A DNA stretch of 32,000 nucleotides from Promethearchaeota archaeon (GTDB lineage Archaea; Asgardarchaeota; Odinarchaeia; Odinarchaeales; JBHLKK01): positions 1,256-33,255 of the forward strand of contig JBHLPL010000006.1 in NCBI GenBank assembly GCA_048939465.1. Direction: 5' to 3'. The notes under the pieces are model-generated. The model ran no database searches, had not been told where the DNA came from, and saw only the letters and a list, made by a program, of their open reading frames with translations. Position numbers and translations under genes: made by a program. Shown here one piece after another: positions 5,515 through 19,651 of the stretch (position 1 is its first letter; the number at the start of each line of letters is the position of its first letter).

Positions 5515-5781
5515 GCCTCACCAAAATCCAACATGAACAAGCAAGGTTTCTTCTCTCTGAAAAATAAATGTTGACTCGATTTAGGTAGTTCTAACGGATT
5601 AATCCTCTTCCTTCCCTGTTTTTGGCGCCCCTGACACTACGTGGATAATACCAGAAGATACCAGTAAGAGCAAAAAGCAACAAAAGGAAATTACTTCTTG
5701 TCTTCTGACCTCTGATCGGACTCTCTTGGGAAAGCAAAGATTTAAATATAACACCGTTATAATATCTCTCGGGAGTTGTAC

Positions 5782-6966
5782 ATGAAGAGAACGGTATATA
5801 TGGACAATGAGAGATCAACTCAAGTGGCAAAAGAAGTCTTAGACTCTATGGTTCCCTACTTCACAGAGTATTATGGTCATCCGGCTTCAATTCATGGACT
5901 GGGAGAGCGAGCGCATGATGCAATTGATGAAAGTGCAGAGACAATAGCTCGATCAATAAATGCAGGATCCAATGAGATCGTTTTTACCTCAGGAGGGACA
6001 GAGGCAAGTGATTTGGCAATAAGAGGCATCATCTACGCCAACAAAGACAAGGGTAGACACATGATTACGTCTAGAATTGAGCATCCATCAGTGATGAGAA
6101 TAACAGAAGAGCTTTCAAAACAAGGGTTTGAGGTCGACTATGTCAACGTAGATGAGAAGGGTTTCGTAGACCTAGAGGAATTGCAGCAGCTGATTAGAGA
6201 TGAGACTGTTTTGGTAAGCATAGCGCATGCAAACCACGAGATTGGATCGATTGAGCCAATAAAGGAAGTAGGAGAGATATTAAGAAACCAGAATCATAAG
6301 ATATATTTTCATGTTGATGGCCAGTCATCCTATACAAGACTCCCCATAGATGTTGCAGAATTCGATCTGGATGCATTAACGCTAAGCGCACATAAAATAC
6401 ATGGTCCCAAAGGTGTGGGTGCGCTCTATCTGAAAGAGAAGACAAAGATTGATCCGATACTCTTTGGATATGTCTCGCTATCAACATTAAGACCCGGAAC
6501 AGAGAATGTCCCAGGAATAGTCGGCTTTGCAAAGGCTGCTGAGATAGCTTTAAAGAATATCGATGAATATGTGGCTCATATGAGGAGTCTAAGAGATGAA
6601 TTGCTTGAAAGGATCGGAGAAACTATCCCTGAGACTTTGCTTCACGGTCCGAAAGGAGACAGGCGAAGTCCGAGCAATGTTAATTTCTCTTTTAAGTACA
6701 TAGAGGGAGAATCAATAATGATGTATTTGAATATGAATGGGGTGTATGTATCAACAGGCTCTGCTTGTGCGTCACGAAAACTGGAGCCGAGTCATGTCCT
6801 GACAGCAATAGGAGTGCCAATAGAGATTGCACATGGATCAATACTGTTTGCTCTAAGCAGGTATAACACGAAGGGTGATGTTGAATATGTACTCGAAGTT
6901 CTCCCGAAAGTTGTTGGCCATCTGAGAAGTATGAGTCCCTTATGGGACAAAAAGCACGAGAGGTAG
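5782..6966 (+). CDS. iscS: Cysteine desulfurase, IscS/NifS (group I)
   Basis: FTSGGTEA, PLP-lysine motif SAHKIHGPKG, RPGTENVPG, catalytic STGSACAS. ATG 5782 preferred (GGGAG SD); TTG 5776 is an alternative. Confidence 0.93.
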   Translation: MKRTVYMDNERSTQVAKEVLDSMVPYFTEYYGHPASIHGLGERAHDAIDESAETIARSINAGSNEIVFTSGGTEASDLAIRGIIYANKDKGRHMITSRIEHPSVMRITEELSKQGFEVDYVNVDEKGFVDLEELQQLIRDETVLVSIAHANHEIGSIEPIKEVGEILRNQNHKIYFHVDGQSSYTRLPIDVAEFDLDALTLSAHKIHGPKGVGALYLKEKTKIDPILFGYVSLSTLRPGTENVPGIVGFAKAAEIALKNIDEYVAHMRSLRDELLERIGETIPETLLHGPKGDRRSPSNVNFSFKYIEGESIMMYLNMNGVYVSTGSACASRKLEPSHVLTAIGVPIEIAHGSILFALSRYNTKGDVEYVLEVLPKVVGHLRSMSPLWDKKHER

Positions 6967-7750: not shown

Positions 7751-8887
7751 GTGGACGAGATGGAAATCACTTCATTCAAGATAAGGTATCCAAAGTTGGA
7801 GGATGACTGTACTCTTGTCAAAGGTGTCGTCAGGAGTCTAGAAGAGATGAGAGAAGATGAAATAACTTTTGTCGAACCATGTGCTGCAGAGGTAGGAAGG
7901 CTCATGGCCAAAATAACCCTTTCTGATGAGAAAGCTCAGAAACAGGGACTCTTTTTCGACAAGAGTATGTTGTGCGAGCTCTTTGAAGCATTTAAGGAGA
8001 GATTCTCCGAATTTGAATGCAGTAAGCTATTAGGCATAGTCAGGATAAAATGGAGAGGAAAGAACATATCACTCTTTGCTAGTGGCAGAATAAAAATCTC
8101 AACAGCCTTGAGTGAGGAGGACATCATGCGAATGCTTCACGATATCACTCGCTTGTCGTGGGGGGCAATGATCTGCAGCGTTTGCGGCAGTCCGGCGATA
8201 TATTGTGCTTCCGGAGCCTGCAATAAGTGTATTATTCACCAAGGAGATGAAACAAAAGAGGCCTTTGTCAGCGGCAAGCTACCAGGTCTGATTCTGACAA
8301 ATGCCCTAAACCAAATGGACCAAGCTATAAAAGAGCTGGAAGTCAATTATGAGAGACTCTTAAATAGGTTGATTAAGCAAGAGAAGAGTGACATATCACT
8401 TAGAGCTGCCTTGAAAAAGACATTGAAGACAGCCCAACTGAGCTTAGAATATATTCTTAGAGTAAGCAGCCCCGAAGATGCCCTAGCAGGATTCATGGTG
8501 TTGGGTTCTTCATGGAACCTCAGAACGGTGCTTGAAGCCGTGAAATGTATCTATGAGGAGATGGAAGCAGTCTGTGTCTTCTTTCAGGAAGTTGATAGAA
8601 CTCTTAGAGATTCTCTGTATAGTCTGTTAACGGGAGTGAATACAGTTCTTTCAATACTCTCTACCGGCTTCATGATCTTTGATAGAGAAGCCAGAGATTC
8701 TCTCGAAAGAAGAATCGGACTTCTCAAGAAAAGATTTCAAGACTTCAATAGAGGCAGTTTAGAGACACCAAAAAGACAAAAGGTTTTAGATACCTTGATC
8801 CATCTTATTGACTCGTTCTTAGCATTTGCACATCACCTATCCAAGATTCTCGGGGTGGAGTCTTTTGACAAAGGTGGAAGAGATTAG
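7751..8887 (+). CDS. Hypothetical protein, possible Fe-S/metal-binding (TBP-like N-domain, CxxC-x5-C-x3-CxxC cluster, helical C-terminus)
   Basis: 378-aa ORF; EPC...ISLFASGRIKI..ALSEED pattern recalls archaeal (Fe-S)-binding proteins; ICSVCGSPAIYCASGACNKC; overlaps the sufS start by 23 nt. Confidence 0.5.
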   Translation: MDEMEITSFKIRYPKLEDDCTLVKGVVRSLEEMREDEITFVEPCAAEVGRLMAKITLSDEKAQKQGLFFDKSMLCELFEAFKERFSEFECSKLLGIVRIKWRGKNISLFASGRIKISTALSEEDIMRMLHDITRLSWGAMICSVCGSPAIYCASGACNKCIIHQGDETKEAFVSGKLPGLILTNALNQMDQAIKELEVNYERLLNRLIKQEKSDISLRAALKKTLKTAQLSLEYILRVSSPEDALAGFMVLGSSWNLRTVLEAVKCIYEEMEAVCVFFQEVDRTLRDSLYSLLTGVNTVLSILSTGFMIFDREARDSLERRIGLLKKRFQDFNRGSLETPKRQKVLDTLIHLIDSFLAFAHHLSKILGVESFDKGGRD

Positions 8888-10088
8888 AGCAGACTTTCCC
8901 ATTTTGAGAAAGCGAAGGAAAAGAGATGATAAACCGTGCATATATCTTGATAATACTGCGACAAGCCTGAAGCCCAGGCAGGTGATAGAAGCAATTGTGG
9001 ATTACTACGAAAATCACTGTGCGAATATCCATCGTGGGGTCTACAGACTCTCTCAAGAAGCCTCCAGACTTTACGAAGAAGCTCATGATACGGTTGCCAA
9101 ATTCATAGGTGCAAGGAATAGGACTGAGATGAGTTTTGTTAAGAATACAACAGAGGCAATAAACTACGTAGCGTATGGAATTGATTGGAAGCCTGACGAC
9201 ACGGTCATAGCCTCGGTCATGGAACATCACAGCAACATTGTTCCCTGGCATCTAATAAGAGAGAAATTCGGGATAAAGATAAAATACGTGCCTTTGAGAG
9301 ACAACTGGTACCTTGATATTGACCAGTTGGAGGCATTAATTGATGACAAAACCAGACTTGTCACAGTAACTCAAGTATCCAACGTCGTTGGCACCATCAA
9401 TCCAATTGAAAGGATATGCAAAATTGCTCACGATCATGACGCTCTATGTCTTATTGATGCTGCCCAAGCAGTCCCTCATATGCCGGTAGATGTCAAAAGG
9501 ATCGGGTGCGATTTCTTGGCGTTCTCAGCCCATAAGATGCTTGGCCCCACCGGAATTGGGGGATTATACATTAAGGAAGGAATAGCGGAGCAGTTGTGTC
9601 CAACCTTAGGCGGAGGAGACATGATACGGAACGTCACACTGGAAAGCTGTGAATGGAACGTAATGCCTTGGAAATTCGAGGCAGGAACACCAAACATAGC
9701 AGGAGGAATTGGGCTCAAAGCTGCAGTAGATTACTTAAACAGCCTGGGTATGGAGTGGGTAAGGAATCACGAAAAGGAACTGACAGGATATATGCTGGAG
9801 CAGCTCGAAGGAATCCCGAAAGTCGAAATCTATGGGCCGCGAAATGTAGAAGAGAGGGGGGGTGTATGTGCATTCAATGTTGAAGGGTTGGATGCTCATG
9901 ATGTCGCCACTTTCTTAGATGAAATAGAGAACATAGCTGTCAGATCAGGAGTTCATTGCGCACAACCTCTACATAATACGCTTGGCATTCCAAGAACTGT
10001 GAGAGCATCCGTATACGTATATAATACGAAAGAAGAGACCGAGAAACTGTGCGATACCTTGAAAACAATATCTGAAGAACTAGCATAG
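8865..10088 (+). CDS. sufS: Cysteine desulfurase, SufS (group II)
   Basis: IRADFPIL, LDNTATSLKP, NIHRG, DAAQAVPH, FSAHKMLGPTGIG, KFEAGTPNIAG, catalytic RSGVHCAQP. TTG 8865 with SD GGGGTGGAG. Confidence 0.93.
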   Translation: MTKVEEIRADFPILRKRRKRDDKPCIYLDNTATSLKPRQVIEAIVDYYENHCANIHRGVYRLSQEASRLYEEAHDTVAKFIGARNRTEMSFVKNTTEAINYVAYGIDWKPDDTVIASVMEHHSNIVPWHLIREKFGIKIKYVPLRDNWYLDIDQLEALIDDKTRLVTVTQVSNVVGTINPIERICKIAHDHDALCLIDAAQAVPHMPVDVKRIGCDFLAFSAHKMLGPTGIGGLYIKEGIAEQLCPTLGGGDMIRNVTLESCEWNVMPWKFEAGTPNIAGGIGLKAAVDYLNSLGMEWVRNHEKELTGYMLEQLEGIPKVEIYGPRNVEERGGVCAFNVEGLDAHDVATFLDEIENIAVRSGVHCAQPLHNTLGIPRTVRASVYVYNTKEETEKLCDTLKTISEELA

Positions 10089-10341
10089 TTTAGAGCATTG
10101 CATTTCCTTTTGAAATACTGGTTTCTAAAAAGAAGCGCTACTATGTGCCTGCGGATCCTAAATAAGCTCGAACATTCAGTTAGATAATTTTCGGGGGGCA
10201 GTTCTAGAAAAACTGAGTAATTATCAATCAGAAATGCTCCTTCTTCAGTTTTACAGACTAGCTGTGAGTTAATCTTTATAATGAATCTTGTGCTCTAGTC
10301 TCAGTTGAATCAGAAACCAACTGAAATAAGGCCGGATCTGC

Positions 10342-11073
10342 ATGTTATCAAAGGATGAATTAGCGAGATATGATAGACAAATTAGATTGCACAAGTTTGG
10401 TGTGGAGGGACAGACGAAACTTAAGAGGACAAAGGCTTTTGTTGCCGGCATCGGCGGTCTTGGATCTCCTGTGCTGTCATACCTGACATTAGCCGGGATT
10501 GGTAGCATATACTTGGCGGATGGCGATGTCGTGGAATTGAGTAACTTGAATAGGCAAATCCTACACTGGACAAGGGACATAGGTAATAAGAAAGCTAGGT
10601 CGGCAAGAGACAAGCTTCTAGAAATGAATCCGAATGTCGAAACTAGAAGTCTCGCAGAAGTTATAACGGAGGATAACGTATCAGCGCTGGTCGGAGACAG
10701 TGATTTGATAGTTGATTGCATGGATAATTTCGAGACGAGATATTTGCTGAATCGAGTCGCATTGGAGAGGGAAATACCTCTTTTTCATGGAGCCGTCTAC
10801 GGCTTCGAGGGACAAGCTACAACAATTATTCCCGGAAAAACACCATGCCTGAGATGTATCTTTCCTGAAGCCCCGCCTAAAGAGGTTTTTCCAGTAGTCG
10901 GGGTCACGCCTGGTGTTATCGGTTGTATCCAGGCAATGGAAACAATAAAATATGTTGTAGGAATTGGAAACTTGATAATGAATAGGCTCTTAGTATTCGA
11001 TGGAATAGATATGGAATTTATGAATATTGAGGTTAAGAGAAATCCGAATTGCTCAGAGTGCGGAGATAGATAA
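10342..11073 (+). CDS. ThiF/MoeB/UbaA family E1-like adenylyltransferase
   Basis: RYDRQI, GIGGLG, DGDVVELSNLNRQ, DCMDNFETR, Zn pairs CLRC and CSEC. Confidence 0.92.
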   Translation: MLSKDELARYDRQIRLHKFGVEGQTKLKRTKAFVAGIGGLGSPVLSYLTLAGIGSIYLADGDVVELSNLNRQILHWTRDIGNKKARSARDKLLEMNPNVETRSLAEVITEDNVSALVGDSDLIVDCMDNFETRYLLNRVALEREIPLFHGAVYGFEGQATTIIPGKTPCLRCIFPEAPPKEVFPVVGVTPGVIGCIQAMETIKYVVGIGNLIMNRLLVFDGIDMEFMNIEVKRNPNCSECGDR

Positions 11074-11100
11074 TTCGTCGAGCGTCGAGATTCAGTGGAA

Positions 11101-12585
11101 TCATATTAGAACCAATGTTTTCGAGAATAACTTCTTGAGTTCAGATGATGGTTCGCTGCTTCTTCTAAGTATATTCAGAGTGATTTTAAGAATTGCAAAG
11201 GCAGCCAAGTCCGTGATTCTGTCTCCGCTTTCCGCGGCGTCCTTGGCTGTGCTTCTTATGATTTCAAAGAACTGCGTGTTCAGATCTCTTTTCTTCTCTT
11301 CAATCTCCGTGTTGAGTGTCCCCAAAATTGCACCTATGTTCAAGCTCATTGAGTTCAGATTCTGCGGCAAATCCGTCGATACGATTTCACATCCCTCAAG
11401 ACTTAGCACACGAATACCTGTTCGCCTTATTAGTATTCTTTTGATTGAAGGGTTATCCCTGATCTTAGTCAGTGTTCTTATGAGATGTTCAATCCCCTTG
11501 ACTAGCGTTTCTTGTCTTGTCTTTAAAAGATTCCTTGCAGATCTTATGAAAGGGAGAAATATCTCTGTATGCATGTATCGCTGATTCTTCGGGTCGCCTA
11601 TCCAGACTTCTTCCTCATCAATTGCATTTTTGGCAGCACTGTATGTACTGTCTTCCACATCCTGAATACCGGAGAAAATACTGCCTAACACATCCTTATA
11701 ACTCTCACTCGTAAGAGTGTTTCTGAAAGCTTTGCTTCCCTCTAGTCCTCTTGCCAGAGCAGTATCGAACTCACATATTCTTTTGAGATTCTCAAATAGC
11801 TTCGCCATAGATGAGAGCCCTTCAGAGACTCCTTGTATGATGATGTTTGAAGGAAGGCGCAGCGTTGGATCTACTTCTTCTTTTCCGTATCTTAGGAAAT
11901 CGTTATAAAGATGCATCACTTTCTCGTTTTCCTTTCTAGTACTTTGCATGACAGCCAGTGTCTTATCCATTTCCGCCTGTAATCCTTTTATGGCTTCCTT
12001 GTTCCTCTCAATGTTCTCCTTGAGGTCGAGTTTGTCTTGAGTCAATATTCTGATCTTGTGATTCAGTGCGTTGATTTGATTCGTCTGATCGACTGTTTTG
12101 TATGATAACTCAGCGTTTTCTTCCTTCAGCGCTTTTGTGTCTTCTTCAAGGAGGGTAATACGATTCTGTTTCTCGCTCAACTGATTCCGCATAGCGGAAA
12201 TTTCATCTTGCGTCTTGACCAGCTGAGTCACCGTTTCGTCAAGGGGGTGAAAAATCACATTAACACGATTCTTTAATTCATCGATTTTACCTTGGATCGT
12301 AACCTGTTTTTCTTGGATGCTCTCTCCTTTAATATCCTTCTCAATAGTCCGTATTACGGAAGAGACAGTATCACCTTCTCCCTTTGGCAATTGACCGGTT
12401 AGCAAAAGCTGATTTAGCTGTCTCTTTAGCATATCAATACTATCATTAACCTTGGCAATGCTTTCTTTTTGCCCCAGCATATCCAAATCGATTCTTTTTG
12501 TCTCTTTGACGATTTCGGATAGTTGAACAATTAGTTTCTTCAGATTGTCGTACGCATTTCTAAGTGATTGGGGCATTTCTTGCAT
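11101..12585 (-). CDS. Long coiled-coil protein, third gene of the tubulin operon
   Basis: 494 aa; continuous heptad region of ~100 aa (QDEISAMRNQLSEKQNRITLLEEDTKALKEENAEL...GLQAEMDKTL); SD GGTGA; starts 29 nt after the tubulin stop. Confidence 0.8.
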   Translation of the reverse strand: MQEMPQSLRNAYDNLKKLIVQLSEIVKETKRIDLDMLGQKESIAKVNDSIDMLKRQLNQLLLTGQLPKGEGDTVSSVIRTIEKDIKGESIQEKQVTIQGKIDELKNRVNVIFHPLDETVTQLVKTQDEISAMRNQLSEKQNRITLLEEDTKALKEENAELSYKTVDQTNQINALNHKIRILTQDKLDLKENIERNKEAIKGLQAEMDKTLAVMQSTRKENEKVMHLYNDFLRYGKEEVDPTLRLPSNIIIQGVSEGLSSMAKLFENLKRICEFDTALARGLEGSKAFRNTLTSESYKDVLGSIFSGIQDVEDSTYSAAKNAIDEEEVWIGDPKNQRYMHTEIFLPFIRSARNLLKTRQETLVKGIEHLIRTLTKIRDNPSIKRILIRRTGIRVLSLEGCEIVSTDLPQNLNSMSLNIGAILGTLNTEIEEKKRDLNTQFFEIIRSTAKDAAESGDRITDLAAFAILKITLNILRRSSEPSSELKKLFSKTLVLI

Positions 12586-12614
12586 GGTATCACCATCAAA
12601 GAGCGAGGCATAAC

Positions 12615-13889
12615 TTACCCACTTTTTAGATTGTCGTAGGTCTCAATTATGTGTTGAAAAGTATCCCTTGCCTCTCTCAACTGATCTCTTGACACTCCTT
12701 CTTCCTCGTAGTGGCTTATATACCAGTTTCTCTCAAAAAGCGAATCGAAGTTCTCCAGAACATGTTTGAATGCATCGGTTATTGCTACGTTGTTTGCAAG
12801 TAGCGTAATCTCTTTTTCGAAACCGGTGGGACTGCTCTCGCAGATGCCATATTTTAGGCCTAAGTCTGGATGAACTCCAGGAACATAGTCCACAGTAGCT
12901 CTTATCTCATTCATAATATTGTAGATATTGTCTATTGATATTTCGCCCCGAAACATTATAACGGAAGATATTGCTGAGCCTTTATCATTACAGCTAACCA
13001 TGAAATGGCTTGGGTCAAAACAACGTTCTATAAGATCTAATTCTGTAGCATCTTTCCCTTCTTCCTTGGTCAGGGGAGCCACCGCAGGAATGATGAACTT
13101 TGTCTCGGGAAGCGCAACCAAATTATGAGCCATCTCCATAAGATCCATATTCAGCTGTCCTGGGAATCTGAGAGACGCAGTTATGGATGCCATGACTCTG
13201 CCTATCAGAAAGTTAAGGTCAGAGAATTGCTTTATGAAGGGTTGATTAAATATATCCTTCACTATTCGCATCAAAGCACTGTTATCGAACATGACGCATA
13301 TGTCTGCATGTTTCATTAGATGGGTTATACTCAAAACCGTGTTGTAAGGAGCTATTGTGATGTCGTTCATACGAGCGGGCAAGACACTGAACGTCATAAC
13401 ACCTTTTTCCGGAAACTCCTTCTTCAGCGTTTCAGCAATTAAGGAACCAAACCCACTTCCAGTACCTCCGCCAAGCGTATGGATTATTATAAAACCCTGT
13501 AATGTGTCTGGGACTGTGGTTTTGATTTTCTCTAGGAGGTTTGGGATTAATCGCTTCCCAAGCTTATATCCCGTGGCCCAGACGTTATGAGCCCCCGAAT
13601 AACTGAGTAACATAAGCTCTTCTGAAAAGAATTTATCAAGACCTTTTTCGCGTACCAGAAACTCAACGGCCAGTGGCTCGAGGTCAATGAACAAAGATCT
13701 TGGATGGAACCCATCCGGTGATTCGACGAGGAAGACAGATTTGTAGTCAACAATATCGGAATCCTCTTCCTTCTTCTGCAGAGTCTTCATGTCAATTCCA
13801 TGTTCCGAGCATATAGTATTCCAGAAATTATAACCTATTTGATTTCCGCCCTGCCCAACATGTAGGACAAGTATCTCTCTACCAGGCAT
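12615..13889 (-). CDS. Eukaryote-like tubulin, OdinTubulin-type
   Basis: MPGREILVLHVGQGGNQIG, FIDLEP, GAHNVWATGY, signature HTLGGGTGSG (GGGTGSG at 13452-13472), APYNTVLS, FDNSAL, SITASLRFPGQLNMDLMEM, WYISHYEEEG. The alternative ATG at 13895 adds ML. Confidence 0.95.
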   Translation of the reverse strand: MPGREILVLHVGQGGNQIGYNFWNTICSEHGIDMKTLQKKEEDSDIVDYKSVFLVESPDGFHPRSLFIDLEPLAVEFLVREKGLDKFFSEELMLLSYSGAHNVWATGYKLGKRLIPNLLEKIKTTVPDTLQGFIIIHTLGGGTGSGFGSLIAETLKKEFPEKGVMTFSVLPARMNDITIAPYNTVLSITHLMKHADICVMFDNSALMRIVKDIFNQPFIKQFSDLNFLIGRVMASITASLRFPGQLNMDLMEMAHNLVALPETKFIIPAVAPLTKEEGKDATELDLIERCFDPSHFMVSCNDKGSAISSVIMFRGEISIDNIYNIMNEIRATVDYVPGVHPDLGLKYGICESSPTGFEKEITLLANNVAITDAFKHVLENFDSLFERNWYISHYEEEGVSRDQLREARDTFQHIIETYDNLKSG

Positions 13890-13906
13890 CAGCATCGCCT
13901 CTCATT

Positions 13907-15547
13907 CTATTCCAAACTAGATTTCTTTCTTGTTGAGTAAATTCTGTGTAGTTTTTTTGTAATGGTCTTACATGACGCATCATTTGATACGTATTTTGCA
14001 AAATACTCGTAAATATCATCGTAAGTGACATTGCCCATAAGCTTTTCTTTCAGCATCTCCACGCTCACAACAACGGAAAGTTCATCTGTATCAATGACGG
14101 TAACCGACGGATTGTAGGCGACGTAGATTCTCAGAACAGGATCTGAAACCGCGTTGACTTCTCCTCTTTTTATCCATCCACGCTCACCAAAACCTTTCAG
14201 CGCATTATTCACAAGGTCAATATCCTCTTCGTAAAGTGTTATTGGAAGAACGCCATGCGTTATGAAGTCCTCGCCGGTATATTTCTGTGGAATGCAGTCC
14301 ACAAACATCGATATGCCTCTTATAGTTTCCTTGTTTATCCTTGAAGATCTCATTCGTATGCAGCTCTTGAGGGGTTCGTATGCCTCGATTAGGAAGCTTC
14401 CGAGCAACATGAGTTTTCGTTTAAGCTCATCCCAATCATAAGCGTTTCCATCTCCCTGAATCCATCTGTCCAGTATTATGTCAAAGTAGCTCATCAGCAA
14501 TGGAGAAGGGTTCTTTAGGTTTGAGAGCAGATCTTTGATATTCTTTATGCTCGTAGAGATCGGATCTGCGATCTCTTCTAACTTCTTAGCAAAATCTTTC
14601 TCTCTTTCAGCATATTCAGAATGATCTGTCTTAAAGCTGGATATGAGCAGGTTCATTAGCTTGACTGCTCCGTCGATATCATGATTCTTAAGAATCACCC
14701 TGGGACTGATTCCTGCAGAAACGAGCATTTGCACACCTCTAACCAGTGCGATTTCTGCGTCTTTCATGTTTTCAAGGATTGGGACAGCTTTCTGCAAATA
14801 CTCGTCATCAACTTCTTCCATTTGAACCTCAATCATGAACTTCTCAAGGAAGCTTTTCAGATTTCTGTTGAAGAATTTCTGCTCACTGTCAGTTATTCCT
14901 CGGACTTTCTCCGACATTTTCCTTAATTTGCTCATAACCTCAGAGCGAATCCTGATTCTTCTTTCCAAATCCCTTCTGAATTCCTTATGTTCAGAGAATT
15001 TCTTCTCAGCATTCCCTATGATTTCCAGAATCAGATCGTATTTCTCATCAACTGACTCTATGTTGCTCTTGCCTTCGGCGACCGCTGTCTTGAGCGGTCC
15101 AAGAGATGCGTTTATGCGAGATATCGCTTTTATGGCTTCGTCCATTCCTCCCCACGATAGGTCCATGCTCTTCATCATAGCTTCCAGACTATCAAATGCG
15201 ATCAAAATCTCCTCACAGCCTTTTTCCAGATCCTTCGCTCTGCTTAATACTGAATCTAGCAGCAAACCATCTCCTCGGTTTAATGTATTTTCCAGCGTTT
15301 TCAAATATGCCTCCAATTTCTTCAGCTTCTTTTTTGCGCCACCAAAAATGCCTCTTATTCCTTTCCGGACTTCTTTTACCTGCTTGGCTTCTGTTTTTAG
15401 CCCTTCTGCCCGTGACCGGAGTTCATTCAAATCTTGGGTTATTTGTCCGGGCACAAGACCTAAGGAGTCGGCCACCTTTTCCCTAAGCCATAGCCTTCGC
15501 ATAAACTGGTCAATTCTTTCATTCAAAGCTTTCTGAGCTTTTTGCAA
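13907..15547 (-). CDS. Helical/coiled-coil protein, first gene of the tubulin operon
   Basis: 546 aa; K/E/L-rich helical repeats over the first ~300 aa, small alpha/beta C-terminal domain; stop 11 nt before the first tubulin ATG; TTG start with GGGGTAGAAGG upstream. Confidence 0.78.
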   Translation of the reverse strand: MQKAQKALNERIDQFMRRLWLREKVADSLGLVPGQITQDLNELRSRAEGLKTEAKQVKEVRKGIRGIFGGAKKKLKKLEAYLKTLENTLNRGDGLLLDSVLSRAKDLEKGCEEILIAFDSLEAMMKSMDLSWGGMDEAIKAISRINASLGPLKTAVAEGKSNIESVDEKYDLILEIIGNAEKKFSEHKEFRRDLERRIRIRSEVMSKLRKMSEKVRGITDSEQKFFNRNLKSFLEKFMIEVQMEEVDDEYLQKAVPILENMKDAEIALVRGVQMLVSAGISPRVILKNHDIDGAVKLMNLLISSFKTDHSEYAEREKDFAKKLEEIADPISTSIKNIKDLLSNLKNPSPLLMSYFDIILDRWIQGDGNAYDWDELKRKLMLLGSFLIEAYEPLKSCIRMRSSRINKETIRGISMFVDCIPQKYTGEDFITHGVLPITLYEEDIDLVNNALKGFGERGWIKRGEVNAVSDPVLRIYVAYNPSVTVIDTDELSVVVSVEMLKEKLMGNVTYDDIYEYFAKYVSNDASCKTITKKLHRIYSTRKKSSLE

Positions 15548-15647
15548 ATGCCTTCTACCCCTTATTAAGAATGCGAGCTATCAAGCAAATCTTTGTAAGT
15601 ATTAAGACAAAAACCTTTCGTAATTATTACTAACCAAAGAGTTTCCC

Positions 15648-16481
15648 TCACAAGTCAGAATTCTCGAGAAGTTTCAGACCCTTCACGTGTATTTTAATAA
15701 CTGCAAAAGGAGATTTTATTGCGGATATGATATTAAATCCACAAGAGTGACTTAGCAATCTTTCTGCCGTTTTCAGTCCCTTTTTTGAGTAGGCCCTAAT
15801 AATCTTCTGAAATGGAGGACTTCGTCTATTAACGTAGTAGTAGGTGTTTAGTAAGCTCCATTTGGCAGCTTCCCGTATGAATCTTCCCGCTTTTCTATCA
15901 AGGAGAAATGCCAGAAAACCGGAGAGGCTAAGAAGAACGCACATTAACAGACTTTTAAGCCACTGCTTGATATCAATATCGTGCCTTCTAATACTACTTG
16001 AAATGTCATCTCCGAATACCGTTACAACATGACTCAAAACAGAGTTAAACACCAGTTTTGACGGGGCAAGAATCTTCCCGAAAGTCCGACTTATTGAAAA
16101 AACTCTTTTGAAATCTCCTCTTAAAATGTCACCCTTTCTACAAATAAAATGTGAGGCGAACATGCCTGTGGCTCTCTCAATAGCTCTAAACAGGCGTTCT
16201 ATTCTTGTCTTTGCAGGTCTGGAGAATCCCAGAGTTGTCTCAAGACCTTCAGCTATTCTATCAACTTTGTCAATTCTCCTCTGGCTAACAGGATCATCCA
16301 AGACTATTATCAAATCAAGGTCACTCTTTTCCGGGTCTGCGTATCCTTTCGCGTAAGACCCGAACAGCAGAATTGAGATTATTCTGTCAGCTGCTGCCTT
16401 TTTGACCATCCTGATCAGAGTATCCAAATAAGTTCTGGCCTTTTCAGGCAGTAAGATTGATCCCGGTTGTGCTTTTTTCAT
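15648..16481 (-). CDS. Pol-beta-superfamily nucleotidyltransferase domain protein with helical C-terminal domain
   Basis: SILLFGSYAKG...SDLDLIIV (hG[GS]-x-DhDh motif) in the N-terminal half. Confidence 0.8.
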   Translation of the reverse strand: MKKAQPGSILLPEKARTYLDTLIRMVKKAAADRIISILLFGSYAKGYADPEKSDLDLIIVLDDPVSQRRIDKVDRIAEGLETTLGFSRPAKTRIERLFRAIERATGMFASHFICRKGDILRGDFKRVFSISRTFGKILAPSKLVFNSVLSHVVTVFGDDISSSIRRHDIDIKQWLKSLLMCVLLSLSGFLAFLLDRKAGRFIREAAKWSLLNTYYYVNRRSPPFQKIIRAYSKKGLKTAERLLSHSCGFNIISAIKSPFAVIKIHVKGLKLLENSDL

Positions 16482-16953
16482 CTAAATCACTTGTGATTGC
16501 TGAGAGTCTCTGGGTTGAAGGTTCAGCCAATTTTACCCCGTAGGAGGGGGTGATGCTACGCGTGTGAGTTACTCAAGACTCCCTAAAGAGCATCCTTCTC
16601 CCTGCTTCATGCGTTTGAGGACACTTCGGCTTCAAAGAGATGAGGTTTCTGTACTGCTAATCCAGGGCTACACAGAAGGGCAAAACTTCTGTCTGATTCT
16701 CCGTACACTGTGTATCAGGCACTTACGTAGCTCTGTCAGGGGGAAATACCGTCAAGACCTGTGTTCTCAGATTGTGTCTTGCGCTCATGCCGCTGATCAA
16801 AGCTCCTCTTGCGAGTACCTTACCCAAAACCTAATTACCGAAAAATCATTTAAAGGTACCGCAACTCACTCTTTGCCTCTCGAGTTAAGAACGTTTGCGG
16901 AGAATGTAGTAAGGACTTCGCAATTCAGTTAGAGGATCACTGTATGCCTTCAT

Positions 16954-17565
16954 CTACACTGTTGCTCTTCTTGCCCGAGGAATCCTTTCAAGCTTTCTCT
17001 TCAGTCTTTCGAAATTAGTCCTCAGCTTTTCCAGAAGGGCATCAGCATTATCAAACTCCTCATCTATTATTGCTCTAAGGAACTTATTGACTTCAGAATT
17101 ATGCTTTCTTGAGTTATAACCAATTAATTCGAGAATAGCTTCAGTTCTATCCAGTGAGGATCTACAGCCTTCAGTCACTTTGTTAATCACTGAAAGATTC
17201 TTTTCCATTTCTGATGTAAGTTCTCTGTCTTGTTCCATAGCGCTTAGTGTGTATTCAAATCTCGGCAATACGAAGAGTCTTAATTTTGACTTCAGATCTT
17301 CCTTGCTTTCTAAGGTCTTGTATAAGACTTCCAATACTGATTTTGCATAGCAACAGACTTCTTTCCTCGCTTGTATCCACTTCTCAAGCGCTTTCAAGGC
17401 GACTAATGCTTCGGAGAAGGTTTTTATGAATTGATCAAGTCTGATTTCCATAATCGGACTTTCCGACTTTATAGGATCGGGGAAATTCAGAAAAATAAAG
17501 GATGTGCCATCCTTGATCATTCTGCGGAATTCCGATAATCTTTCCATGATGGACTCTTTGCTCAA
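16954..17565 (-). CDS. Hypothetical alpha-helical protein
   Basis: 203-aa ORF; amphipathic-helix composition; G-rich SD-like run upstream of TTG; no family recognised. Confidence 0.6.
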   Translation of the reverse strand: MSKESIMERLSEFRRMIKDGTSFIFLNFPDPIKSESPIMEIRLDQFIKTFSEALVALKALEKWIQARKEVCCYAKSVLEVLYKTLESKEDLKSKLRLFVLPRFEYTLSAMEQDRELTSEMEKNLSVINKVTEGCRSSLDRTEAILELIGYNSRKHNSEVNKFLRAIIDEEFDNADALLEKLRTNFERLKRKLERIPRARRATV

Positions 17566-17751
17566 CCTTTGTTCCCCCCAAAAAACGCTGACATTTCTTG
17601 GACTAGACCCTATTATCTTAAGCTAGACTCTAATATATTTATCGATATTAGTGATCATCTCCTTCTTTTAGAATCATTATTTGTCAAAAGTCGATCTTTG
17701 ACCAAAAACAAGGTCTCTTAAGCCAAGTCATGATTCCGGACGAGGATCCGA

Positions 17752-19041
17752 TTACTCATCCATTAGCCTAGACCATAAAGCCACTAACTCTCTTGAGATA
17801 TTCCGATGATCTTCACTGTAGATCTTAAGAGCTTCTTCACCCTTTTTGCTCAAGAGCAAAAACCTCTGATGGTTCCCGTCCCCCTCAGGATCCGTAAAGG
17901 AGATAATGTACTTCAGTCTTTCGAGTTTCTCAAGAACCTTCAAAGTCGTATTAATGTCCGTCGTGGGGGCAACACGCTCAAGAGTTGAGCCAGGATAATC
18001 AAGCAATGATTGTAGGACTTCAACAGCAAGAGGTAGTTCGTCATCTGCGAAGTCCTCATCCAGTAGGATTCTTCTTATTCGCATTGTGCTGTCCGAATAT
18101 GGTTTCATGGGATCGATTCTATGGGTTGGTGCGTAATCACTAATCTCTCTTTCGGTTGTTTCCCGGAGGGCTAGGTCCGTTGAAAGATGAGAAGGGGACC
18201 GTCGCTTCTTGGAAGACACATTTGATGTTAATGATGAAGCTATCGGACCCTCTGTAATCAAATTCGCAACCTCGGATTCTCTCAGAGCGAGATCAAGACC
18301 AGTCTCAGAGTCTATTCCACCGCTCATAATTCCCGATCGCAGGACTTTGATTAGGTTGTCTCGATCAATTCTGCGAACTTCGCACTCTGGAAATGATGTA
18401 TGAATGGAAGTCTTCACTATAAACATATTTTTCCGGACTTCTTCGGCCAGTATTGCGCACTTCTCTTCGAGGTTTAAAAAGCCCTTCATATTCTTGTGGA
18501 CCGCAATTAGCACCTTCACATTCCAATAATTTTCATGCAGCTTGAGATAGTTGAGTCTGTCATGGTTGACTCGATCCTCTGATGGATTTTGAACCAAGAT
18601 ATACGTTAGTGATATGTTCTCGTCATGAAGAGTCTTCAGAACACCATCAAGATCTCCTCTGAAGCCCTTTGGGACCATTTTGAGAGCAAGGAATCCTAAG
18701 GCAGTTATTGTAGATTCCTTCTTTGTTATAACTACGTCATCATAGTTTCCGTAAAGATAAAACTGAATGCCTTTTAGGACATCTATTTCTTTCAGTCTAC
18801 CCTGAGTTTCTCTTCTTACATTTCTAAGTCTTCCCACATCATAGAGCTTCTTCTTTGCTCCTTTGGCAAGTCTTTTGAGTTGACTGTAATTCAGCGCAAC
18901 CATTGTAACTGCCATTGGTATAATGAAAAGGAATAGTGTGACAGCTGTGTTACTTGCAAGGAGTAGAATAGCGTTTAGTGCAATGAATCCAACCACCAGG
19001 AGAACGATGAATTTAATGATCCCTCCAGATAGAACCTTCAC
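17752..19041 (-). CDS. Membrane-anchored hypothetical protein (two N-terminal TM helices, C-terminal winged helix)
   Basis: Hydrophobic N-terminus IIKFIVLLVVGFIALNAILLL / TAVTLFLFIIPMAVTMVAL; C-terminal wHTH pattern TLKVLEKLERLKYII...LLLSKKGEEAL; GTGA stop/start overlap with the upstream gene. Confidence 0.65.
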   Translation of the reverse strand: MKVLSGGIIKFIVLLVVGFIALNAILLLASNTAVTLFLFIIPMAVTMVALNYSQLKRLAKGAKKKLYDVGRLRNVRRETQGRLKEIDVLKGIQFYLYGNYDDVVITKKESTITALGFLALKMVPKGFRGDLDGVLKTLHDENISLTYILVQNPSEDRVNHDRLNYLKLHENYWNVKVLIAVHKNMKGFLNLEEKCAILAEEVRKNMFIVKTSIHTSFPECEVRRIDRDNLIKVLRSGIMSGGIDSETGLDLALRESEVANLITEGPIASSLTSNVSSKKRRSPSHLSTDLALRETTEREISDYAPTHRIDPMKPYSDSTMRIRRILLDEDFADDELPLAVEVLQSLLDYPGSTLERVAPTTDINTTLKVLEKLERLKYIISFTDPEGDGNHQRFLLLSKKGEEALKIYSEDHRNISRELVALWSRLMDE

Positions 19042-19409
19042 GATTCAAACTCTCCCAACAGCTTTGTTCCAATATAGATTGTGAACATCCCTGGGACCCC
19101 AAAGCCAATAAACCATAGCACTGTTTCAAACATGCCAGATTGAGTAAATAATCCACCAATGACTCCTGCCATGGCTACCGTGAGAAATCCCACCCCGACG
19201 GACGTGATGAGGCTCCCTACAAGCCTATGAACAGGGCTAGTACCTCGCCTCTCCTCCTTAATCCTAGCTCTTTCCAGCCTATCAAGTAAGTCCAGACAGC
19301 TAAGCTTGGAAATAGCATAATCGCTGGAAGACATCTCTCCTTCCTCATACTTCGAATCAATGAATTTCAAAAGCCTAGCTACCTCTTCTTCCATCACCGA
19401 AATCCTCAT
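19038..19409 (-). CDS. Small membrane protein with N-terminal SHOCT-like motif and two TM helices
   Basis: IDSKYEEGEMSSSDY motif; hydrophobic LVGSLITSVGVGFLTVAMAGVIGGLF and TVLWFIGFGVPGMFTIYIG; translationally coupled to 17752..19041. Confidence 0.6.
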   Translation of the reverse strand: MRISVMEEEVARLLKFIDSKYEEGEMSSSDYAISKLSCLDLLDRLERARIKEERRGTSPVHRLVGSLITSVGVGFLTVAMAGVIGGLFTQSGMFETVLWFIGFGVPGMFTIYIGTKLLGEFES

Positions 19410-19651
19410 TCGTTTTAGGTCCCTCTGAGAATAGGGTTTCTTTTTAAAGCTTGCCAGAATACGTACGAAAAACTGTCAGGAATTTTCAATTCGGGAAAAA
19501 CGAATCAGAATATTCCTATTTGACAAGAAAGAGACCTATTTGACCGCAAACGTTAGAATAAGCCAAGCTGGAGGAAATTCGATAAGAACGATTCTGAATC
19601 CACCTAAGAAAATTCTCATGCCGCTAAGCAAAAACGCGACAAATTGCCTAA

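Follow-up and report, generated by a model that had tools for sequence, protein, structure and literature searches.

OdinTubulin, the tubulin of Odinarchaeia, counts among the small number of true tubulins known from prokaryotes and takes a central place in debates on the origin of microtubules. It is single-copy in all Odinarchaeial genomes (PMC13394414), and the purified protein assembles alone in vitro (Akil et al., 2022; PMC8956254). So far it has been studied in isolation, and no member of Odinarchaeia has been cultured. The genes flanking it have been noted in Candidatus Odinarchaeum yellowstonii LCB_4, where the upstream hypothetical protein was described as similar to Prc1 at its N-terminus and to Snf8 at its C-terminus, and the downstream coiled-coil protein, annotated as Smc at NCBI, as weakly related to ATG16 (Santana-Molina et al., 2023; PMC9871819). 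In the same study both flanking genes were called specific to the LCB_4 genome, and OdinTubulin was proposed to work with the "Prc1-Snf8" protein. These neighbors go unmentioned in the work on OdinTubulin structure and filaments and on the Odin FtsZs (PMC8956254, PMC12583498), and tubulin contexts have been reported to lack conservation from one taxonomic group to another (PMC13394414). Here we analyze a 32,000-nt stretch of contig JBHLPL010000006.1 of a Promethearchaeota archaeon (assembly GCA_048939465.1, positions 1,256 to 33,255; hereafter the window), in which an OdinTubulin-type gene lies between the genes of an upstream partner (P3) and a downstream partner (P1). We favor the view that these genes form a conserved operon, through which Odinarchaeia-related archaea probably produce their single true tubulin along with two structural proteins that are lineage-specific and act on or with its polymer.

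The tubulin gene

By sequence, the central gene is an orthologue of OdinTubulin and belongs to the true-tubulin clade, not to TubZ; it thus adds a further member to a family that is already known and structurally characterized. Its product matches the Pfam families Tubulin (PF00091; 162.9 bits against a cut-off of 33, E 1.4e-47) and Tubulin_C (PF03953; 60.2 bits against a cut-off of 26.6, E 2.9e-16). It also aligns with the OdinTubulin crystal structures 7EVB, 7EVG and 7EVH at about 704 bits (E about 1e-211; 8e-211 for 7EVB), the next-best solved relative being BtubB with 261 bits. The GGGTGSG loop is present, as is the catalytic Glu254 in the T7 region (N-M-D-L-M-E-M), and the acidic C-terminal tail is absent. 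No second true tubulin is encoded in the host genome, two distant FtsZ/CetZ-like genes being located elsewhere. Among 400 Asgard genomes searched, close relatives of this tubulin are confined to the same order, with 94% identity in a congener (G298) and 69-72% in four genomes of the sister family (Odinarchaeum). Two genomes of the Loki/Heimdall type carry AtubA/B-type genes with 32-37% identity to it.

Conservation of the trio

Comparison of related loci revealed that P3, tubulin and P1 are collinear, without exception, in 14 further loci representing at least six lineages by tubulin identity (G298, G300-G303, L055/L061, L056/L062, L057, L058, L059, L060 and L051). P1 is found directly downstream of tubulin in all 14 (spacer -1 to 29 nt) and P3 upstream of it in each of the ten that reach far enough (spacer 6-84 nt); in one lineage, start and stop overlap at one junction of the trio. 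In this synteny survey, which the preliminary description of the DNA had called for, both flanking genes stand beside every orthologous tubulin found. The three-gene arrangement is far beyond chance, since all of the related loci examined have it.

The association was also followed from the side of the partners. Hidden Markov models of the P1 and P3 families, run over the 400 Asgard genomes, gave full-length matches solely in the tubulin-bearing order, with only weak coiled-coil matches to the N-terminal half of P1 outside it. When a profile of the P1 C-domain was compared with 1.84 billion representative proteins, seven real matches were obtained, one being the P1 of the window and the other six, on other contigs, all being encoded immediately downstream of a tubulin. 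Conversely, all clusters of the OdinTubulin clade with readable context in a set of 5.8 billion proteins carry the partners. These searches show both partners, as families defined by their profiles, to be universal companions of OdinTubulin-clade tubulin that are found nowhere else. In genome G299 (82% complete) no tubulin was detected; the start of a P3 gene sits there at a contig end, so that an assembly break probably accounts for the loss of the other operon parts. A scan of metagenome contigs with the tubulin yielded L051 as the sole further Odin-type locus, together with one unrelated tubulin. On L051, a 2-kb metagenome contig, a frameshift divides the tubulin gene into two overlapping open reading frames (ORFs; positions 1-1013), with an intact P1 homologue following it; the frameshift points to either a misassembly or a pseudogene.

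The members of the trio differ in their rates of change. Identity between groups is 69-84% for tubulin and 23-43% for P1, the partners diverging about three times faster in identity than the highly constrained tubulin. Such an asymmetry is typical where a polymer is served by accessory proteins.

What lies beyond the trio varies with lineage. Downstream of P1 there is a convergent ThiF gene in the window, HMA-thioredoxin and Cu-ATPase genes in Odinarchaeum-like loci, and an aconitase gene in L055. On the upstream side, a gene for a KaiC-like ATPase lies between P3 and the nucleotidyltransferase gene described below in G300, G301, G303 and L056. In the closed genome G303, the best homologues of the other neighbors in the window are 66-780 kb away from tubulin, or there are none. 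Change has thus touched the trio at either border but never in its interior. The KaiC/RecA-like ATPase itself has 252-260 aa (L028 11963-12745; L056 4202-4963) and is absent from this position in the window, G298 and L055.

The two partner proteins

Both partner families are uncharacterized and order-restricted and, at the level of sequence and profile comparison, are without detectable kin in known families. No Pfam or NCBIfam family exceeds its cut-off with P3 or P1 as a whole, the P1 C-domain has no Pfam match even at E<=10, and no TPR family is among the Pfam matches of either protein. The sub-cut-off matches of both (ATG16, FPP, myosin tail, SMC) are coiled-coil noise. Profiles of the two families gave nothing significant against Protein Data Bank (PDB) sequences. 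Confident folded models were obtained for both proteins despite shallow alignments, and fold searches with the full-length models (Foldseek PDB, VIA-align, AlphaFold DB clusters and ESM Atlas, the last by shape and features) returned generic helical bundles only. EzrA recurs weakly among these fold matches, within the noise expected for helical proteins. P1 and P3 were also considered as possible paralogues and rejected (BLASTP E 0.23; hhalign probability 11%).

The AlphaFold 2 (AF2) model of P3 was built from only eight sequences and has a mean predicted local distance difference test score (pLDDT) of 87.6 and a predicted template modeling score of 0.69. Residues 1 to about 330 are modeled as long antiparallel helices in stacked bundles, while the C-terminal region also holds a small element of alpha/beta type, with strands at 458-460, 482-486 and 491-495. 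The conserved motifs of this region are an invariant G-x-R-G-W-x-K (454-460) and Y-x-Y-F-x-K-Y (513-519). Cysteines 396 and 418 are invariant in 10 sequences, and Cys526 is invariant in the eight-sequence alignment. The glycine-rich segment 55-73 has the top helical hydrophobic moment of the protein (0.72 against a mean of 0.35) and is modeled with low pLDDT (53); G63, K72 and K73 are invariant in 10 sequences, and the net charge across residues 61-83 is +7. This segment may be an element that binds a membrane or an acidic surface.

A number of candidate identities were considered for P3. With regard to PRC1/MAP65, the Pfam family MAP65_ASE1 (PF03999) matches nothing genome-wide, even at E<=10. 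With regard to Snf8/Vps22, EAP30 (PF04157) matches two other genes, which are genuine ESCRT-II genes on contig C138, and not P3, and hhalign, run on the P3 family against the EAP30 protein encoded in this genome, gave a probability of 0.1%. The Pfam EzrA family scores 14.4 bits, below its cut-off of 39.6, and a check for the spectrin fold with the full-length model as query returned only generic three-helix-bundle matches.

The AF2 model of P1 has a helical hairpin at the N-terminus, then a single unbroken helix of about 148 residues (89-236), which is probably a coiled coil, and then a conserved helical C-domain. The pLDDT of the C-domain is 74-93 from residue 311 on and lower across 238-310. 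Its conserved motifs include L-x-R-R-T-G-x-R (385-392), R-Y (336-337) and F-F (439-440). The family is most conserved over the last 14 residues (conservation 0.77 against 0.23-0.72 elsewhere), whose pattern stops exactly at the C-terminus in 12 of 12 sequences. This 14-mer is a candidate docking peptide or membrane tail. An amphipathic membrane helix of the MinD/FtsA kind is not specifically supported, the hydrophobic moment (0.43) being near the protein mean (0.36). An assignment of P1 to SMC/Rad50, proteins with an ABC ATPase head and a hinge, is not borne out, TIGR02169 scoring 31 bits against a cut-off of 729 and in the coiled-coil region only.

A complex prediction for P3 340-546, the P1 C-domain and tubulin reached a median score of 0.48. 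In the controls, the score was 0.00 with tubulin replaced but 0.63 with the P1 C-domain replaced; the threshold was therefore missed, and the prediction counts neither way.

Gene organization

The features of the locus are listed in Table 1. The preliminary description had reported three minus-strand genes with spacers of 11 and 29 nt, and these coordinates match the ORFs exactly; the Shine-Dalgarno site that it had placed before the last gene is also there, 4 nt ahead of the ATG of P1. Its account of the 546-aa product as a helical protein agrees with the AF2 model, which is almost wholly helical. The coiled coil that it had described in P1 does correspond to a long helix, but the length given, about 100 aa, was too short.

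Table 1. Features of the tubulin locus, with positions in the window
Feature	Position	Strand	Basis or remark
P3, upstream partner, 546 aa	13907-15547	minus	ORF, TTG start
P3 residues 55-73, glycine-rich, strongly basic, conserved	15329-15385	minus	alignments, hydrophobic moment
P3 residues 340-546, most conserved part	13910-14530	minus	conservation over 10 sequences from 4 lineages
P3/tubulin spacer, 11 nt	13896-13906	minus	GAGAGG ahead of tubulin ATG
Tubulin, OdinTubulin-type, 426 aa	12615-13895	minus	ORF, Pfam, PDB matches
Tubulin/P1 spacer, 29 nt	12586-12614	minus	GGTGAT, Shine-Dalgarno-like, 4 nt ahead of P1 ATG
P1, downstream partner, 494 aa	11101-12585	minus	ORF, AF2, family alignment
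P1 C-domain, residues 238-494	11104-11874	minus	AF2, family alignment, profile search
P1 last 14 residues	11104-11145	minus	S-[DE]-[LI]-x-[KR]-[LI]-F-x-[KR]-x-[LI]-x-L-[IV]
Minimal nucleotidyltransferase (Pol-beta/MNT type), 277 aa	15648-16481	minus	Pfam, alignment of 8 orthologues
Candidate structured RNA, upstream intergenic	~16560-16860		no Rfam match; folding energy as in shuffled sequence (z -0.2 for either strand)

Support for the TTG start of P3 comes from orthologues whose first residues, M-G-K-A-Q-K, fall in the same alignment column; an alternative start, 15 codons later, is given in one database gene call. A scan for bacterial-type promoters and terminators, with archaeal promoters outside its scope, found sites no more frequent than in shuffled sequence. 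The intergenic stretch 16482-16953, in which the candidate RNA lies, has 472 nt here and 119 nt in the congener G298 (L030).

Neighboring genes and source genome

Upstream of P3 lies the gene of a minimal nucleotidyltransferase, which matches Pfam NTP_transf_2 with 37.3 bits (cut-off 21, E 3.8e-9). The motif G-S ... D-x-D ... D is intact, with G41, S42, D54, D56 and D63 invariant in eight orthologues, and the C-domain is helical and conserved. No HEPN partner was seen beside it at the locus. In three loci, which represent two lineages (the window and G298; L055), it directly precedes P3, and in Odinarchaeum-like loci it is one gene further off; wherever a lineage has enough flanking sequence, the gene is kept near the trio. 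It is possible that it constitutes a fourth member of the system, as a regulator or modifier, or that it is merely a persistent neighbor.

On the other side of the trio, the ThiF/E1-like gene convergent to P1 (10342-11073, plus strand) has longer homologues of about 350 aa located 0.6-5 kb past P1 in L028, L029, L056, L058 and L059, and not in L055. The presence of ThiF near P1 seems to be a leftover of ancestral synteny. Two class-V aminotransferase (cysteine-desulfurase-like) paralogues with 27% identity are encoded 2 kb apart on the plus strand (5776-6966 and 8826-10088), and both are kept in the congener. On the minus strand, a 203-aa gene with no family assigned and weak coiled-coil-like matches (16954-17565) and a 429-aa gene without any match (17752-19041) are conserved within the genus. 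The 429-aa protein, used as query, was not found in two Odinarchaeum genomes. The neighbors of the trio are of the housekeeping kind (family-B DNA polymerase, CysRS, Lon, cysteine desulfurases), and nothing suggests that the trio belongs to a mobile element.

The host metagenome-assembled genome has 1.96 Mb and is 91% complete. DNA nearly identical to it turns up repeatedly in metagenomes of mangrove and sediment from several studies, and since the genome is in the same order as Odinarchaeum, this suggests a sister lineage of Odinarchaeum living outside hot springs. The NCBI labels of its close relatives read "Hodarchaeota" or "Promethearchaeota archaeon", the genome nonetheless being in the order of Odinarchaeum.

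Functional interpretation

The preliminary description had presented the two flanking proteins as dedicated partners of tubulin and possible proto-MAPs (MAP, microtubule-associated protein). Of these two ideas, that of dedicated partners is well supported by comparative genomics, which makes a functional link of the three genes very probable; direct binding we infer. No relation to eukaryotic MAPs was detectable. The flanking proteins match no unrelated family either, SMC/Rad50 and chemotaxis proteins appearing only as coiled-coil noise far under cut-off. As regards the earlier statement that no characterized pair of this kind is known, neither protein has indeed been characterized, but both flanking genes had already been described in LCB_4 in 2023 (PMC9871819).

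In the operon as we picture it, the short spacers would couple the synthesis of the three proteins. P3, an elongated stack of helical bundles, would lie along or across OdinTubulin protofilaments via its conserved C-terminal region, and its basic glycine-rich segment may add a contact to the membrane or to an acidic tubulin surface. P1 would dimerize via its helix of about 150 residues and thereby present two C-domains together with the invariant C-terminal peptide, and such a dimer could cross-link, bundle or anchor filaments. The neighboring nucleotidyltransferase might regulate the system.

Several points weigh against this picture. Direct physical contact between the partners and tubulin is something we only infer, and neither partner has a relation to known tubulin- or FtsZ-binding families that could be detected by the sequence searches. 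All lineages come from one order-level group, so that the gene-order evidence is not fully independent, and the ThiF and nucleotidyltransferase genes are semi-conserved too, showing residual ancestral synteny. RNA datasets gave no entry for the operon or the tubulin gene. Moreover, since OdinTubulin assembles alone in vitro (PMC8956254), the partners are not needed for polymerization itself.

The last point also agrees with a different arrangement, in which P3 and P1 share a process with tubulin without touching it and form a scaffold of their own, e.g., a coiled-coil lattice at the membrane or the division site, that is co-regulated with tubulin. Both proteins are big enough for self-assembly, and the synteny fits equally, as it cannot separate direct from indirect coupling. 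However, the exclusive 1:1 co-occurrence, the immediate adjacency and the start/stop overlap in one lineage are more typical of one complex, and neither family was found without tubulin; we regard the separate scaffold as rather unlikely. It could also be argued that the three genes have unrelated functions and are neighbors only by descent, in compact and slowly rearranging genomes. It is true that all examples belong to a single order-level clade, and that both ThiF and the nucleotidyltransferase have stayed close by for no functional reason that is known. What speaks most strongly against synteny by inheritance alone is that insertions and rearrangements have affected both borders in several lineages, while the trio has remained intact. 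The dispersal of other neighbors by hundreds of kb and the identical phyletic patterns of all three families point in the same direction, and descent alone seems a very improbable explanation.

The gene order tubR-tubZ-tubY is known from type III partition systems, and the order adaptor, tubulin, coiled-coil protein found here recalls it. A role in DNA segregation after the manner of TubZ-TubR-tubC(-TubY) would require the winged-helix-like C-terminal region of P3 to bind DNA and link it to the filament, and P1 to act as a TubY-like modulator. In P3, a C-terminal helix is indeed followed by a G-x-R-G-W-x-K-R strand, a pattern frequent in winged-helix domains, and the region bears a local, non-significant resemblance to the genome's ESCRT-II winged-helix protein. 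On the other hand, P3 has no helix-turn-helix (HTH) or winged-helix Pfam match even at E<=10, and its putative recognition helix is not basic, residues 341-546 being acidic (pI 5.8). No iterons, tandem repeats or repeat arrays were found in 9000-19500, the tubulin falls in the true-tubulin clade and not with TubZ, and the locus is chromosomal and of housekeeping character, not part of a plasmid or phage. We give a segregation system little chance. A bolder extension of the operon hypothesis would be a four-part tubulin machine, in which P3 and P1 are the first dedicated partners of an Asgard tubulin, arose independently of MAPs and shape or anchor curved protofilaments, and in which the nucleotidyltransferase nucleotidylates tubulin or one of the partners. 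We consider this quite improbable as a whole; if true, nucleotidylation would be a prokaryotic counterpart of the post-translational regulation of tubulin.

If the partners are obligate across the clade, the tubulin cannot be understood alone, and P3 and P1 are two concrete candidates for OdinTubulin biochemistry and cryo-EM. The mangrove and sediment lineage offers a second, possibly mesophilic set of proteins, which is perhaps easier to handle than those from hot springs. Should the proposed roles hold true, tubulin accessory proteins would have arisen in archaea as lineage-specific inventions and not from ancestors of eukaryotic MAPs. With the partners shown to be universal companions of this tubulin, the long-standing question of what OdinTubulin does, and with which proteins, becomes directly testable.

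Comparison with known systems

Stacked antiparallel helical bundles are, in general terms, an architecture shared by EzrA, spectrin, vinculin and the microtubule-binding domain of PRC1. The scores of P3 against filament-binding proteins of the EzrA, PRC1/MAP65 and spectrin types all stay within helical-protein noise. EzrA possesses an N-terminal membrane anchor, whereas the N-terminus of P3 is polar, as judged by eye on the translation, and no such anchor is apparent. The TubZ-TubR-tubC(-TubY) systems resemble the locus in their order of small adaptor, tubulin-like GTPase and coiled-coil modulator. They differ in that they employ another tubulin family; the partners described here are five times larger and have no detectable HTH, no centromere repeats were found at the locus, and its setting is chromosomal and of the housekeeping kind.

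The AtubA/B(/C) proteins of Lokiarchaeia and Heimdallarchaeia are also Asgard true tubulins, but their loci hold tandem tubulins without homologues of P1 or P3. AtubC has been suggested as a possible orthologue of the Odin tubulin (PMC13394414). The Lokiarchaeial AtubC-type gene of genome G138 (L053 8146-9555) is solitary, with oppositely oriented genes on either side and no homologues of P1 or P3.

Prokaryotic tubulins co-encoded with accessory proteins are an already known kind of system. In Prosthecobacter, BtubA/BtubB are encoded together with BtubC, i.e., a true tubulin with a non-tubulin accessory that acts on the filament (PMC9871819). BtubC, however, is a TPR protein (kinesin-light-chain-like), while P1 and P3 have no TPR match, and the present locus combines one tubulin with two partners. 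The closest described locus is that of OdinTubulin in LCB_4, which has an orthologous tubulin (71% identity) flanked by the same families in the same order. The host of that locus is from hot springs, and the present copy belongs to a sister genus known from metagenomes of mangrove and sediment. The weak ATG16 match of the LCB_4 downstream protein reappears for the present P1 only under cut-off. Our analysis confirms the adjacency reported by Santana-Molina et al. and corrects two published statements, as the description of the flanking genes as genome-specific is overturned and the Prc1/Snf8 labels are not reproduced. OdinTubulin and its flanking genes in LCB_4 were already known; what is new here is the conservation of the arrangement in at least six lineages and its exclusivity.

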